A stretch of 64,000 nucleotides of DNA from an uncultured Candidatus Peribacteria bacterium. Lineage in GTDB: Bacteria > Patescibacteriota > Gracilibacteria > Absconditabacterales > Absconditicoccaceae. Each line of letters starts with the position of its first letter. Position 1 is the first letter of the stretch. The stretch lies in NCBI GenBank assembly GCA_964458335.1, contig CAYWIJ010000002.1, positions 26,379 to 90,378 on the forward strand, written 5' to 3'. Made by a program: the position numbers and the translations under genes. Below, piece after piece: positions 17,829 to 63,875 of this stretch. The notes under the pieces are model-generated. The model made no database searches. It was not told the DNA's origin and saw only the letters and a list, made by a program, of their open reading frames with translations.

Positions 17829-18536
17829 ATGTCACGTACCAAATTGATCAGATATACAACAGCTCAAGATGAGCCCATGATGATTCAGTCAGGAAAACTA
17901 TTTTTTGAAAAATGTAAGGGAAAACGAAGATCTGACTATTTTGGAAATAATAATCCGATTGTTTTAGAATTGGCTTGTGGTCGTGGTGAATATACGGTGG
18001 GTCTTTCTCAAATATATCCGAACAAGAATTTTATCTGAGTAGATATTAAAGGAGAGAGAATGATGATGGGAATTAGAAATTATAAATTATGAATTGAAAA
18101 TTTTAGATGAGAGTATAATTGAGGATTTAAAATTCAAAATTTAGAATCTCCTAACATTGCTTTTCTTCGCACGATTATTCATCATATTGATAGATTTTTT
18201 GATGAGGGAGAAATAGATGAAATATGGATCGTTCATCCTGATCCAAGATCAAAGTGACATGATGAGAGAAGGAGAATTACTTCTCCACGTTTTTTGGCTA
18301 TGTATGCAAAGATTTTGAAATCTGATGGAATACTAAGACTCAAGACTGATGATGATGGAATGTTCGAATATTCTAGCGAACAGTTTAATCAGTTTGGATT
18401 CCATTATATTGATAGTACACGAGATTTAGATCAGTCTCCGTTAGCAGCTCATCACCATGATATAGAAACTCATTATGGAAAATTATTCAAAGAAGAGTGA
18501 AGAACAATCAAATATGGAATTTGGAGAAATAATTAA
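17829..18536 (+). CDS. trmB: tRNA (guanine-N7)-methyltransferase
   Basis: [19 protein letters not shown] (G = TGA), [11 protein letters not shown] and ILRLKTDD. The start was chosen at MSRTKLIRY. Stop is TAA 18534-18536. Contains an in-frame low-complexity insert. Confidence 0.85.
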
Positions 18537-55576: not shown

Positions 55577-56266
55577 ATGATTATTCGTAATCCACGAGAG
55601 CAAGAATTTCCCTGATTACAATCGTATGTAACGAGTGATTTTGTAGAACCTGCACAACCCAAGATGACACAGACGCACAGTAATAGAGTAGTTGTTGTCA
55701 TGGAGAGAACTCAAGATATTGGGGAAGCTGATGGTATGGTAACGAGTTTGAAAAACCTTGAACTTCATGTTCGTGTGGCTGATTGTGGAAATATCTATGT
55801 CTACGATCCTGTAGCTGCAGTGATTGGGCTCTGTCATAGTGGTTGGAAAGGAGCGCAAGGCAATATCCTGACTCATATGATCACTGCCATGACTTCATTA
55901 TGATCACAACCAGAGCATATCCGTATCCGAACGGGCCCTTGTATTAGTGCTCAAAACTATGAATTCTGACCAGAAGTGAGAGACTTGTTTTCAGAAGAGT
56001 ATTATACTACAGATAGGTCATTGCGAGGAATGAAGCAATCCACTAATAGATTGCCACGCTCCGTTGCACTTCGCTCGCAATGACAAAAGAAGTATTATCT
56101 CAATCTTCCCAAACTTCATCGTGATCAACTTCTCGCAACGTGAGTAGTATCAGAACATATTATTCAGTCAGCTATTTGTACTTTTGATACTCTTGAACTC
56201 CATTCCTATAGAAGAAATGGTCCCAATGCTGGTAGAATAACAGGAAGTATCTGCCAAACTCTATAA
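55577..56266 (+). CDS. pgeF: laccase-domain / YfiH (PgeF) family protein
   Basis: QTHSNRVVVV, ADGMVT, RVADCGNIYVYDP, GLCHSGWKG and HSYRRNG. 229 aa. Contains an in-frame palindromic insert. Confidence 0.8.
56017..56084. repeat. palindromic REP/RPE-like element inside pgeF, read in frame
   Basis: gtcattgcgaggaatgaagcaatccactaatagattgccacgctccgttgcacttcgctcgcaatgac. The 11-bp terminal arms gtcattgcgag/ctcgcaatgac are exact complements. Encodes ..RSLRGMKQSTNRLPRSVALRSQGQ.. Confidence 0.75.
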
Positions 56267-59929: not shown

Positions 59930-61375
59930 ATGCTTCAGCGTAATTCCAAATATACTCGTAAACCACTCCACCCAGCGAAGATCACCAAGCCAAAGACTTC
60001 GAAAACTGAAAAAATCGTACGATGGAGTCTGTTTGGAATTTTTTTGATAATATCATATTTTGCAGGATGGATGCAGACATGGGCGAAACAAGTCACCAAT
60101 GGAATTGCTTATATTGCTTGATCAACTATTGGTAGCTCTGTACAGAAAGATGAATCCAAAAATATCAATATTCTTTTGGCAGGATATGGATGAGGGACGC
60201 ATGAAGGCGCACAACTTGCTGATACGATTATGGTAGCTTCTTATAATACCAAACAACATTCTGTATCTATGATATCTATACCCAGAGATTTATTAGTACT
60301 GAATAAATCTGGAGATGTGGTGAAAGTAAATTCCATTCTTTCTCGTGCATATAATAGTAATGGATGAGATATCAGAGCAGCAGCACAGGTACTTATCAGT
60401 AGTGTACAAAAAATAACAGGTCTGACTATACCGTATTACGCTATGATAGATTTTGATGGATTTGTAGAGGTCGTCGATTCGGTAGGAGGTATTGATATTA
60501 ATGTGCCACAACACTTTTTAGATACACAATATCCTGTAGATTGGAACGGTACGTATGAGATCTTTGAACTTTTTGAATGATGGAATCATCTCTCAGGACC
60601 TAATACTCTAAAATATGCCAGATCAAGACATAGTACATCAGACTTTTCACGTTCGAAGAGACAACAACAGATTATTGAGGCAATAGCGAAGAAAATTATC
60701 AATTCTGATAACCTTTCACTAAGTAAAATCAAAGAACTTTATAGTTATTATACGACTATAGTAAAAACAAATTTGGGTATAGATGATATGATTGGGCTTG
60801 CTAAAAATGGAACAAATTTCCCTACAATGTTTGCTTTTGGATATACGACACAATGTTCTAATACTATACGAAGGACTATGGTAGCATGATGCGTATTAAG
60901 AGATGCAACATGATGATTATTACCAGCACAAAGTACAGGATGAAATATAGAAGCATATACTGATACCCAGTTTTTTGCACAGATTGTTTCTTCAAATCCA
61001 ACATTCTTATCAGAAGATGCTCAAATAATTGTCTATAATGCTAGTGATAAAGAATTAGCAAAAACACTTCCATTTGGAGATGGTATAGCGTCAAAAATAG
61101 CATCAAAACTCAGAAGATATGCACTTGATGTACAAGAAGTGACCAACGCAGACTCAGTCAGTACAGGTACTTTTGTAGAAATCTATGGTACAGGAACATA
61201 TGACCACACGATAGAACTCATGAAAAAATTTGTTCCTATTCAACAAGTTATTACCTATCCTGATAGAATCAATACTCAAGGAGTGATGAAAACATGAGAT
61301 GTATATTTGTATCTGGGAGATGATTATTTGAACATGGTAGGAAACAGTGAGTTTGATTTTTATAGTACTTTATAA
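59930..61375 (+). CDS. LytR-CpsA-Psr (LCP) family phosphotransferase
   Basis: N-terminal TM segment, then NILLAGYGGGTHEGAQLADTIMVAS, SIPRDL, INSILS, YYAMIDFDGF and KYARSRHSTSDFSRSKRQQ. 481 aa. The frame was hand-scanned. Confidence 0.85.
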
Positions 61376-61429
61376 GAGCGTCACCCTGAGTTTGTTGAAG
61401 GGTCTATTTATTATTATTTTAGATATTTT

Positions 61430-61461
61430 TTACTGGATTCTTCACTTTGTTCAGAATGACA
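61430..61461. repeat. 32-nt half-element overlapping the start of the glycosylase gene
   Basis: ttactggattcttcactttgttcagaatgaca. The ATG inside gaATGaca (61456) is the predicted start codon. Confidence 0.6.
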
Positions 61462-62400
61462 ATACCTCCACAACAAATCGAACAATTTCAATCAGATATT
61501 CGAAAACGACGAGCAATGAATCGTAGAGATTTGCCATGGAGAAAAACAACAGATCCCTATAAAATTTGGATATCTGAAACGATGCTTTGTCAGACACAGG
61601 TTAATAGAGTCATTACGTATTATAATGACTGGCTCAGAACATTTCCAACAGTAGAATCATTAGCACAAGCAAGTACAACTGATGTCTTATCTGCTTGGTC
61701 AGGTCTGGGTTATAATAGTAGAGGATTGAGAGTATTACAAGCAGCGAAAGAAATTCTAAATTCTAGATTTTGAATTTTGAATGAAGGGGTCATTGCAACG
61801 CAGGACGCAATCCATGACAAATGAAAATCACAATATCTGGATTGCCACGCTCCATTACATTTCGCTCGCAATGACGAATCATTTCCAAATACTTACTCTG
61901 ATCTTATTACTCTTCCCTGAGTAGGAGATTATGTAGCCAATGCAATCTTAGCATTTGCTTATGGACAAGATGTGGCGGTGATAGATACGAATATCAGAAG
62001 AATTTTCATTCATCACTTTTCGTTAGATGAAAAAATCTCACTCAAGGAATTGAAAGAAGTTGCTCTCCAAGTTTTGCCTCACTGATATGCGACTGATCGA
62101 TATAATGCATTGATGGATTATGGAGCTTTAGAATTAACAGCCAAAAAGAGTGGTATCAGACCACTGACCCGTCAGAGTACATTCGAAGGCTCAAGGAGAC
62201 AGGTGAGAGCTTGGATAGTAAAGGAAATTGTAAATTCTAAGTTATGAATTCTAAATTATATTGATATACAAAAAAGATTTCCTGATCGTAATGATATCAA
62301 GAGTATTATTGATGATTTGGTGAAAGAAAACGTGATAGAAATTGACTTAATTCGAACGAAGGGAGAGAAAAATTGAAGATTAAAAATTAAAGACTTATAA
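61456..62400 (+). CDS. HhH-GPD DNA glycosylase (MutY/Nth-like, apparently without Fe-S cluster loop)
   Basis: LPWRKTTDPYKIWISETMLCQTQV, LGYNSRG, LPGVGDYVANAIL and VIDTNIRR. No Cys-x6-Cys-x2-Cys-x5-Cys segment after ALMDYGA. 314 aa. Contains in-frame repeat inserts. Confidence 0.8.
61789..61875. repeat. palindromic REP/RPE-like element inside the glycosylase gene, read in frame (87 nt = 29 codons)
   Basis: gtcattgcaacgcaggacgcaatcc...ggattgccacgctccattacatttcgctcgcaatgac. Same family as 56017-56084 and shares attgccacgctcc..t.c.tt.cgctcgcaatgac. Encodes VIATQDAIHDKGKSQYLDCHAPLHFARND. Confidence 0.75.
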
Positions 62401-62439
62401 AACATATTGACATAGACATATATATTATGTATAAATATA

Positions 62440-62459
62440 TTGTCCTGTTCGTTTGTTCT
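62440..62459. repeat. left inverted repeat flanking the T9SS-CTD gene
   Basis: ttgtcctgttcgtttgttct. Its reverse complement recurs at 63879-63901 with a 3-nt insertion. Confidence 0.7.
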
Positions 62460-62513
62460 TTAAAAAATCAATAACTAATCGCTCTTTTATAGAGCATAAA
62501 AACTTAAAACAAA

Positions 62514-63875
62514 ATGAAAAAAATCTTACTAATCGCTTTTGTTATAGTAACTACTGTAGCGAAAGCACAAATAAATTTTGATCCTTATGTGACGTATCCT
62601 ACTGGTTCTGCATTTCATTTTGTAGAATCGGGAGATATCGATGGGGATGGCGATCTTGATCTTGTGGGTGCTACAACCTTTGGAAATGATCCAGTAAATG
62701 ACTATATGCTAGTTATTTGGATCAATAATAATGGAACATTAGCTTCACCAATTAAAATTCCGTACGGCGGAGTAACAGGTTCAGCTACTGGTATTACACT
62801 AGAAGATCTTGATGGTGATGGTAAGAAGGAAATAATATTTGTAGTAGAACAAGAACTACAGGTATGGAAATATTATAATAATAACAATATTGTAAATCAA
62901 TTTTTTACTGTCACTGGCAATACAATAGATGGTGTTTCTGTGGGAGATCTTGATGGTGATGGTCGTAAAGATATTGCTGTCAGTCATTGGAATTCTCCAT
63001 GGATCTCTGTTTTGTATAATGAAAATAATAATTTCTCATTTACTAAGATAGATTATCCTATGGTACAAGGAGGTTATGATCAGATTCTCATCGGTCGTCT
63101 CGATAATGATAACTACAATAGTTTGATTTATATGAGAGGACAAGGATTGGAAAATGATATAGAGATTTTGAGGATAGGCTCGAATAGAGCTATCCAAGAA
63201 ACCAAACATCTCAATCTCTTAGACCCTACTGCTCAACCTCATGGTATTGCACTTGGAAATCCTGATGGTAGTACCAATAGAAAGTTAGCAATAACTTCAG
63301 GCGGTAATATGCCCAATGCGTGGTATTCCTTATCGAATGGAAATATGCTTCAAAATACAATGCAAACATTCCATAATCCGCAAACCGTAAGGTTTGGGAA
63401 TTTGATAGGTGATAATCGTGATGAATTAGTAATTTTGCATGGAGGGTATCAAACCCTGAGTGTACACAATATGCTTACTTATCAAGTAACATATTTTGAT
63501 GTACCATATGCTAGTCATTACCAACCAACGGAAATGACTATTGGTGATTTCAATAACGATGGCAAGCCAGATATAGCTCTTGCAAATTATCTCCACGGAC
63601 TGATTATACTGTATAATACGAGTATACTCGCTGTAGATGATGTTTCACGAGATATCGCTATTTCTATCTATCCGAATCCCGCTACTGATTATATCAGCGT
63701 GAAGACCAAAGAAAAAATTAAAAAACTTGAGCTGTATGATCTTAGTGGTCGTAAAGTAAAAGAAAAATTTAGTACTTCACAAATGAATATCTCAGAAAAA
63801 ACTCCAGGTACCTATGTGCTTCGAGTTGAGTTAACAAATGGAGAGAATTTCTCCACAAAAATAATCAAACAATAA
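62514..63875 (+). CDS. FG-GAP/VCBS-repeat protein with T9SS type-A C-terminal sorting domain
   Basis: Signal peptide MKKILLIAFVIVTTVAKAQ. Repeated D.DGDG..D motifs. The C-terminal IYPNPATDYISV...LELYDLSGRKV......GTYVLRVE...G....KIIKQ is typical of Por/T9SS CTDs. 453 aa with about 40 Gly and no TGA. Confidence 0.85.
   Translation: MKKILLIAFVIVTTVAKAQINFDPYVTYPTGSAFHFVESGDIDGDGDLDLVGATTFGNDPVNDYMLVIWINNNGTLASPIKIPYGGVTGSATGITLEDLDGDGKKEIIFVVEQELQVWKYYNNNNIVNQFFTVTGNTIDGVSVGDLDGDGRKDIAVSHWNSPWISVLYNENNNFSFTKIDYPMVQGGYDQILIGRLDNDNYNSLIYMRGQGLENDIEILRIGSNRAIQETKHLNLLDPTAQPHGIALGNPDGSTNRKLAITSGGNMPNAWYSLSNGNMLQNTMQTFHNPQTVRFGNLIGDNRDELVILHGGYQTLSVHNMLTYQVTYFDVPYASHYQPTEMTIGDFNNDGKPDIALANYLHGLIILYNTSILAVDDVSRDIAISIYPNPATDYISVKTKEKIKKLELYDLSGRKVKEKFSTSQMNISEKTPGTYVLRVELTNGENFSTKIIKQ

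Follow-up and report, generated by a model that had tools for sequence, protein, structure and literature searches.

How does an 87-nt palindrome come to lie in frame within a DNA repair gene, and what becomes of the enzyme that has to carry it? The question is raised by a gene at 61456-62400 (+ strand) of the 64,000-nt stretch of DNA analyzed here (hereafter the window), which comes from an uncultured Candidatus Peribacteria bacterium with a genome of 1.04 Mb (28 contigs, 33% G+C, 99% complete). The product of this gene is a MutY-type adenine DNA glycosylase of the clusterless kind (MutYX-like, 314 aa, translation table 25), and the original prediction had described a composite in-frame insert between its LGYNSRG...AAKEI helix and its FP...LPGVG motif. 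That placement was correct, and the site proved to be empty in the syntenic ortholog of G002, a complete genome of the same genus that served as our main comparator, where the same LytR-type gene lies upstream. We consider it highly probable that the 87 nt are a heterodimer of repetitive extragenic palindromic (REP) units bearing a YGTC tag, lodged in a loop of the MutYX-like enzyme and read through as tolerated selfish DNA, with no role as an adaptive domain.

Structure of the 87-nt element

The element occupies 61789-61875 and amounts to exactly 29 codons (V112-D140, VIATQDAIHDKGKSQYLDCHAPLHFARND), its coordinates and frame being just as first described. It is free of stops under code 25, and its sole in-frame TGA lies at 61822-61824. 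The left REP unit, on the + strand (61789-61814), has the form GTC-ATTGC-AACGCAGGAC-GCAAT-CCA and is read as VIATQDAIH. It is followed by a spacer of 23 nt (61815-61837, + strand; TGACAAATGAAAATCACAATATC), within which the TGA is read as Gly123, and by the right REP unit on the - strand (61838-61875; TGG-ATTGC-(25 nt)-GCAAT-GAC), the + strand of which is read as DCHAPLHFARND. Two junction codons, GAATCA (61876-61881, + strand; E141 and S142), directly precede the native FPNTY. The element is a head-to-head heterodimer, with the tags outside, of two YGTC-tagged REP units of 23 and 35 nt; the right unit is tagged CGTC and the left unit GGTC, and both have the CCA/TGG tail. The description of the element as an 87-nt palindrome holds insofar as its arms are inverted, if imperfectly (matched 8-bp arm pairs GTCATTGC/GCAATGAC outside and GCAATCCA/TGGATTGC inside, in arms of 26 versus 38 nt), but the element consists of two REP units and a spacer that is not conserved.

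Close copies of both units are present elsewhere. Over 38 nt, the right unit shows 94.7% identity to sequences on other contigs (C13:6388-6425 and C9:13880-13917), and the near identity reported earlier between the right arm and a copy in pgeF amounts to 33 of 36 nt (91.7%; 56049-56084). The pgeF copy as a whole (56017-56084, no strand assigned, from the unit census) is a heterodimer of the same 23+35 type. The nearest copies of the left unit are 88.9% identical to it over 27 nt, and because this unit has diverged from its nearest relatives, the insertion is not very recent. An Rfam scan of 61300-62600 returned nothing but a sub-threshold pntA match, which lies outside the element, so the element belongs to no known RNA family.

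Comparison with orthologs

The G002 ortholog has 267 aa and an empty site, AAKDIVARGSFP, in the context ...LQAAKDIVARGSFPTTY.... DNA alignment of the two genes revealed 111 extra nt in the studied gene, a net gain of 37 codons, between GCGAAAGAAATT and TTTCCA. The extra sequence is made up of 30 nt of AT-rich DNA, the 87-nt element and GAATCA, which replace GCACGTTGATCT. Alignment of orthologs showed the insert to be missing from nearly all homologs: the segment corresponding to A97-F142 comprises 7-10 residues in 95 of the 121 homologs, compared with 45 in the host protein.

Distribution of the REP family

In a census of GTC plus a 5-mer, followed by the reverse complement of that 5-mer, GTC-ATTGC...GCAAT ranked first among the stem classes (103 copies in the genome). 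ATTCT (25 copies), ATCCT (12) and ATCGC (10) are minor stem flavors, and control tags and the reversed genome yielded nothing comparable in the same census. A search with the stricter pattern GTCATTGC-N(6-45)-GCAATCC gave 82 matches in the genome, versus 0 when the genome was read backwards. Among the 103 units, all of which have GTC ahead of the stem by construction, the stem is followed by CCA in 82 and by CTA in 15; the position before GTC is occupied by T in 56 units, by C in 23, by A in 21 and by G in 3. Units of the ATTGC flavor are 22-61 nt long, with a mode of 23 nt. Pairs of units within 70 nt of each other are head-to-head in 32 cases, head-to-tail in 6 and tail-to-tail in 1, and 31 of the 32 head-to-head dimers are heterodimers. 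The 23+35 type is found five times in the genome, pgeF included, with spacers that vary in length and sequence; the 35-nt units belong to a subfamily of the GAGCG...GGAGCGTG type.

Simple ORF calling under code 25 produced 955 open reading frames (ORFs) covering 88.7% of the genome, relative to which 138 credible units were placed: 60 of them (43%) lie in the non-coding 11% of the genome, 46 deep inside ORFs, and 32 near or across ORF ends. G002 ortholog alignments span 32 intragenic elements, at 24 of which G002 has a gap of at least 6 residues, and a few intragenic elements are common to the two genomes. Units number 82 in the studied genome, 8-12 in G002 and 17 in another genome of the genus, and most relatives have none. 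Such a patchy, lineage-specific expansion is as expected of mobile DNA. The exact 25-nt consensus unit was also found in Bacteroidota (Mucilaginibacter, Flavobacterium, Tannerella and others), in other candidate-phyla (CPR) lineages and in a cyanobacterial metagenome-assembled genome.

The unit pattern also has 99 copies in G037, a genome from another family of the class, and 24 copies in G045, from another genus, which indicates repeated independent bursts or transfers.

Recurrent insertion into the same loop

Segments of at least 20 residues occupy the MutYX loop in 17 of the 121 homologs, and head-to-head YGTC dimers were verified at the DNA level in four orthologs, namely P0004 (locus L194; ACCCTGAA + ATTCCGGA), P0034 (L207; ATTCCGGA + ATACTGAA), P0040 (L209; ATTCT + ACCCT) and P0012 (L210; ATTGC + ATTGC). 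The loop dimers of P0004 and P0034 have 8-bp stems and 4-5-nt loops. The cores of P0034 and P0040 are nearly identical to those of P0036 (L208) and P0038, whose site is empty (GAAAAAATCGTAAATGGATGAAAATTCC). At the filled sites, the dimer lies within one interval of about 10 nt, the native N-G-G-K codons being replaced and a few unrelated bases flanking it. A quick maximum-likelihood tree of the core, with support only from the Shimodaira-Hasegawa-like approximate likelihood ratio test (SH-aLRT), placed the four filled orthologs in different clades from the studied protein, which groups with insert-free sequences and with P0002. At least five REP pairs have entered the MutYX loop independently of one another in related lineages.

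That the loop drew REP dimers at least five times could also be read as a sign that the dimer is kept as an mRNA or DNA element, whether as a site of RNase III cutting or a means of slowing ribosomes, either of which could adjust glycosylase output, or as a cruciform or supercoiling element. REPs elsewhere have been proposed as RNA elements (PMC3733652), and RNA folding of the dimer predicted one long hairpin of -20.5 kcal/mol, an imperfect duplex of ~30 bp. The z-score of this fold is weak (-2.1), however, and the unit types, spacers and junctions vary by lineage, close relatives without the insert do well, and the non-coding 11% of the genome holds 43% of the units. We consider retention for such a function highly improbable.

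The host glycosylase

Under table 25, in which TGA encodes glycine, the host gene is a single open frame (61447/61456-62400; 314 aa from the ATG) with 6 in-frame TGA codons, and contains neither a frameshift nor a stop. Under the standard code, TGA codons interrupt the frame across the insert region, and standard-code gene callers cut the gene short at the TGA within the insert. The TGA at 61918-61920 encodes the first glycine of the invariant helix-hairpin-helix (HhH) motif LPGVG, and a second TGA of the gene coincides with a glycine conserved among homologs.

The earlier assignment to the HhH-GPD glycosylases was upheld by Pfam matches to HhH-GPD (PF00730, 5e-15) and HHH (PF00633), by an NCBIfam TIGR01084 (mutY) match that is split between residues 20-106 and 137-237 and stays under the model cutoff, and by the top PDB match, 8UUC, the MutYX of Eggerthella (E = 7e-44). 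The 8UUC alignment comes in two stretches, query 12-100 with chain 6-94 and query 141-265 with chain 100-229, and 8UUC has 5 residues at the insert site versus 40 in the host protein. An AlphaFold2 model of the host protein gave a full-length TM score of 0.75 against 8UUC and scores of at most 0.79 against MutY N-terminal catalytic domains (Foldseek, normalized to target length). The host protein and the MutYX of 8UUC (Eggerthella sp., PMC12631127) are alike in lacking Fe-S cysteines (no such ligands were found in residues 190-240 of the host protein) and in having a matching C-terminal domain, a catalytic Glu, and a Gln/Arg motif for recognition of 8-oxoguanine (OG). The host motif RQSTFEGSRRQ aligns with the 8UUC motif that carries the OG-recognition residues, in MutYX Gln201 and Arg209 (Trasvina-Arenas et al. 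2025, PMC12631127), and among the 121 homologs Q240 is invariant and R248 nearly so. The catalytic Glu and Asp are E41 in SETMLCQTQV and D177 in IDTNIRR, equivalent to Glu43 and Asp144 of GsMutY; D177 is invariant in all 121 homologs and E41 in 24 close ones. The Eggerthella enzyme differs in having Glu134 where the host protein keeps the canonical catalytic Asp (D177), and compared with 8UUC the host protein adds 8 residues near its C-terminus.

The core of the AlphaFold2 model is confident (pTM 0.80), with a mean predicted local distance difference test (pLDDT) score of 84. The insert prolongs the long helix by ~10 residues in the model and then continues as a low-confidence coil; residues 111-146 are modeled as a low-confidence loop between intact helices, the 10-residue block means being 42-51 across 111-140 and the pLDDT falling below 50 at residues 125-140. 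The structure prediction shows the insert as a putative disordered loop, with the fold and the catalytic residues of the enzyme intact in the model. The ratio of nonsynonymous to synonymous substitution rates (dN/dS) between the host gene and its G002 ortholog is 0.12 over 267 aligned codons, showing, as judged from codon substitutions, purifying selection on the host gene. From its sequence, the glycosylase gene looks functional.

Alternatively, the insertion may have inactivated the enzyme, and the gene would then be a young pseudogene, caught before stops or frameshifts appeared. The 37-codon insert stands directly ahead of the DNA-binding helix-hairpin-helix, the C-terminal domain contains an additional 8-codon insert, and repair genes are easily lost from small symbiont-like genomes. 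However, all 314 codons are open despite the AT-rich genome, and the catalytic and lesion-recognition residues are all kept, alongside the low dN/dS. Moreover, the insert is predicted to be a disordered excursion between intact helices, comparable inserts persist at this place in several other lineages, and the left unit has diverged yet stayed in frame. We regard inactivation as highly improbable.

An older AT-rich layer and other low-complexity stretches

The 24 nt directly upstream of the REP dimer, AGATTTTGAATTTTGAATGAAGGG (61765-61788, + strand; R104-G111, with TGA as glycine at 61771-61773), are an older AT-rich insert and constitute the left arm of a palindrome built from AT-rich heptad repeats. 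This insert pairs with the native AAATTCTAAATTCT just upstream in a hairpin at 61751-61782, and the aattctaaattctagattttgaattttgaat stretch is present, forms a hairpin (11/12 bp) and consists of 7-nt repeats according to Tandem Repeats Finder (TRF). The 24 nt are absent in G002 and present in the P0002 lineage, in which they are the left arm of a ~57-nt AT-rich palindrome and no REP dimer occurs. The 3' 18 nt of the ILNSRFGILNEG stretch, ATTTTGAATTTTGAATGA, are identical (18/18) to C7:18073-18090, a palindrome arm on another contig. Because the P0002 lineage has the AT-rich palindrome without the REP dimer, the composite insert is two-layered: the older layer is what remains of an AT-rich palindrome, namely its left arm, and the younger one is the REP dimer. 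The original prediction of a composite of two parts stands, the parts differing in origin and age: the AT-rich part occurs alone in P0002, and the REP units have copies elsewhere. Its view of the ILNSRFGILNEG stretch as an insert applies to the part that is absent in G002, but not to the I-L-N-S codons, which are common to several orthologs whatever comes after them.

The AT-rich segment at 61750-61790 resembles host residues 258-270 (KEIVNSKLGILNY), with a BLOSUM62 score of 38 over 15 aa and 0 of 2000 shuffles doing as well; the resemblance may reflect either internal copying or a shared AT-rich heptad composition. A local hypervariable linker that arose by slippage or internal duplication, with no part played by mobile DNA, would account for this resemblance and for the 7-nt repeats in the first part of the insert, but deserves next to no credence, being excluded for the 87 nt by the near-identical unit copies on other contigs and the 25-mer consensus in other phyla, and possible only for the AT-rich piece, which itself matches an AT-rich palindrome family elsewhere.

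Two further low-complexity stretches, one at 62227-62262 and one within the C-terminal tail, had been flagged as being of the same kind, and their 7- and 14-nt periodicity was found as described. They are, however, native and conserved, not inserts, because the orthologs align through them without indels. The first (KEIVNSKLGILNY, 62225-62259, + strand) has 14-nt periodicity and aligns free of indels to all close orthologs; the second, the tail NGRLKIKDL (62368-62391, + strand), has 7-nt periodicity (TRF) and homologous tails NGKLKIKD and DGKLFICNM. The 8-codon C-terminal insert (62347-62370, + strand; about LIRTKGEK) corresponds to a gap in all 23 aligned homologs and in G002. It was considered as a decayed REP unit, and this was rejected, with no significant match and 24 of 100 shuffles equaling it.

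AT-rich palindromes with 7-nt repeats (ATTTTGA / TCAAAAT arms) form a separate family, found at C7:18060-18140, C9:16280-16345, C10:17385-17415 and about 18102-18172 of the window, with an arm identical over 18 nt to window positions 61767-61784. Full AT-rich palindromes are present in the MutYX loop of the P0002, P0030 and P0026-28 lineages. At the same loop, the homolog P0076 (365 aa) has a 96-residue Lys/Glu-rich insert, far longer than the REP-derived ones.

Reading frames and TGA recoding

In half of the units (69 of 138, 50%), neither TAA nor TAG occurs in any of the six frames, compared with 13% of random windows and 16% of composition-matched shuffles. Under the standard code (code 11), every unit has at least one closed frame, the one in which the tag ...AATGAC yields TGA. 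The 46 intragenic units were read in the frames V-I-A...A-I-H (21 units), G-L-x-R...S-Q-G, with the final G being the TGA from the tag (11), ...A-M-T (8), S-L-R (3), ...R-N-D (2) and H-C-E (1). Frame use is uneven (chi-square versus uniform ~37, 5 degrees of freedom), and the glycosylase dimer has its left unit in the commonest frame, V-I-A...A-I-H, and its right unit in the rare R-N-D frame. With 11 of the 46 in the G-L-x-R...S-Q-G frame, about one quarter of the intragenic units therefore read through what is a stop in standard-code bacteria. Recoding of TGA to glycine does away with the only stop that the ...AATGAC tag makes and would raise the survival of intragenic insertions, which was probably helped both by the stop-poor units and by the use of TGA as a sense codon.

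A preference within genes for tag-to-tag dimer lengths that are multiples of 3 was considered and rejected, such lengths being found in 3 of 16 intragenic and 2 of 11 intergenic dimers. Since tag-to-tag lengths show no enrichment for multiples of 3, the relation 87 = 29 x 3 is incidental; the host frame is kept by the net length, junctions included.

Proposed history of the insert

We propose that a REP-type family multiplied in this code-25 (SR1/Gracilibacteria-type) genome, and that one dimer landed in the short loop between the ...AAKEI long helix and the first HhH helix. By the time the dimer arrived, the loop would have held part of the older AT-rich palindromic insert, and reading through the element would add to the enzyme surface a disordered loop of ~29 residues, or ~37 with the older piece. 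The host gene stays open because almost all frames of the units are devoid of TAA and TAG, TGA is glycine, and 37 codons are gained on balance. The insert is probably roughly neutral.

Several points weigh against this history. The perfect stem of the unit is only 5 bp with a "loop" of 10-45 nt, the hairpins formed by single units are weak, and the dimer has a modest fold z-score (-2.1). The left unit has 3-5 mismatches to its nearest relatives, and gene conversion could be in its history. An insert-free allele from the same species was not found, the closest database protein being 79% identical. The dN/dS of 0.12 spans a long divergence, so a recent loss of function would be compatible with it, and we infer the transcription and translation of the insert from its sequence.

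Mode of insertion

A search for a RAYT/Y1 transposase found no PF01797 match in the 99%-complete genome, although positive controls were detected; other transposase classes were not searched. No target-site duplications were seen in 13 locus pairs of the studied genome and G002 or in four ortholog loci. The junctions at the four ortholog loci and in the G002 pairs are imprecise, with 6-12 native bases replaced; the G002 junction comparison is limited by sequence divergence, the junctions looking similar but being too diverged to decide. Since there is no RAYT/Y1 match, the junctions are imprecise, target duplications are absent and native bases are replaced, the evidence leads away from a cut-and-paste transposase, and the insertion was probably not the work of a classical target-duplicating one. 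The units may instead have been captured in connection with repair or recombination, followed by selection for in-frame survivors.

It is conceivable, though doubtful, that the MutYX loop before the HhH is a true landing pad for YGTC REP dimers in TGA-recoded CPR bacteria and more than a tolerant spot. The suggestion comes from the presence of at least five independent dimers of differing unit types within ~10 nt, two of them in lineages that are nearly identical to orthologs whose site is empty, and from the replacement of 6-12 native bases by each dimer with no target duplication. If it were right, insertion would proceed by break-and-repair or be guided by a nuclease, with a preference for the site, and a small GIY-YIG protein would be one candidate.

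One small stand-alone GIY-YIG gene is present in the genome, at C10:27265-27513 (82 aa); a head-to-head dimer begins 3 nt beyond its stop codon (region to 27584), and there is no repeat upstream of it. The idea that the repeats enclose small GIY-YIG genes was rejected, its support being weak at best: the sister genome, poor in repeats, has an ortholog of this gene, and among 61 relatives the number of GIY-YIG genes does not follow the number of repeats.

Relation to known repeat families

The units share many features with the CGTC-tagged REP superfamily (Di Nocera, De Gregorio & Rocco 2013, BMC Genomics 14:522, PMC3733652), including the unpaired YGTC tag, for which TGTC and CCTC variants are allowed there, A-T at stem positions 1-2 (here ATTGC/GCAAT), and a 3-nt CCA tail. 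In both, most dimers are head-to-head and join unlike units; tail-to-tail dimers are rare and head-to-tail dimers negligible in the superfamily, the counts here being 1 and 6, respectively, next to 32 head-to-head pairs. Also shared are the lack of a linked transposase gene and the enrichment in intergenic regions, with some copies in frame and "many within replication and repair genes" (PMC3733652). Families CGTC-1 to -4 have 8-9-bp stems and 4-5-nt loops, whereas the ATTGC flavor combines a perfect stem of 5 bp with an interior of 10-45 nt. Because of this difference in stem and loop, we assign the units to the tagged superfamily in its wider sense, outside CGTC-1 to -4. The lineage of the present host, in which TGA encodes glycine, was not sampled in that survey, and the text of its supplementary tables contains no glycosylase or peptide matches.

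CGTC-4 and CGTC-1 are the Rickettsia palindromic elements (RPEs) RPE-4 and RPE-6, respectively (PMC3733652). RPEs (Ogata et al. 2000, 2002, as cited in PMC3733652) too are selfish palindromes located in frame within many housekeeping genes of one genome. They are read through as extra surface segments with the fold preserved, and the AlphaFold2 model predicts a comparable surface loop for the glycosylase. In-frame insertion missing from orthologs, a feature of RPE-like behavior, was observed here at the empty G002 site and in 24 further genes. The present elements differ from RPEs in belonging to another phylum and genetic code, in being REP dimers with variable spacers and not of the longer RPE-1 type, and in having one frame that is usable only because TGA is sense. 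Short hairpin units, inverted doublets and lineage-specific expansion are likewise typical of the REP/REPIN-RAYT systems of Proteobacteria, which differ in having a GTAG tag and a Y1 transposase, as against a YGTC tag, no PF01797 match and non-conserved spacers here.

The element thus adds a real, well-supported case to a phenomenon that is already known, namely intragenic CGTC-type REPs with RPE-like behavior. What had not been described before is its occurrence in this lineage and in this host enzyme, together with the twist that code 25 brings and the recurrent insertion site in the MutYX loop. These results document in-gene REP read-through in a candidate phylum in which TGA encodes glycine, with inserts in ~24 genes validated against the sister genome, and show one loop of the recently described MutYX class to have been colonized repeatedly. 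Filled and empty sites in nearly identical backgrounds make these loci clean material for studying the mechanism by which CGTC REPs, for which no transposase is known, are inserted.

Other REP units of interest

A second head-to-head REP dimer, composed of a GTC-ACCCT unit and a GGATTCTTC...CAGAATGAC unit, is located in the 5' intergenic region of the glycosylase gene (61380-61460, no strand assigned). It is absent in G002, where the two genes stand 2 nt apart, and its terminal ...AGAATGAC appears to have supplied the ATG at 61456 and the first two residues of the protein.

A reverse-transcriptase gene (C13:6682-7824; Pfam RVT_1) has its halves in two ORFs, split by a stop or frameshift. A REP unit lies in its C-terminal half, the region C13:6200-8300 is dense in REPs, and the ...PLGNLTS motif of the protein resembles that of the reverse transcriptases of diversity-generating retroelements.

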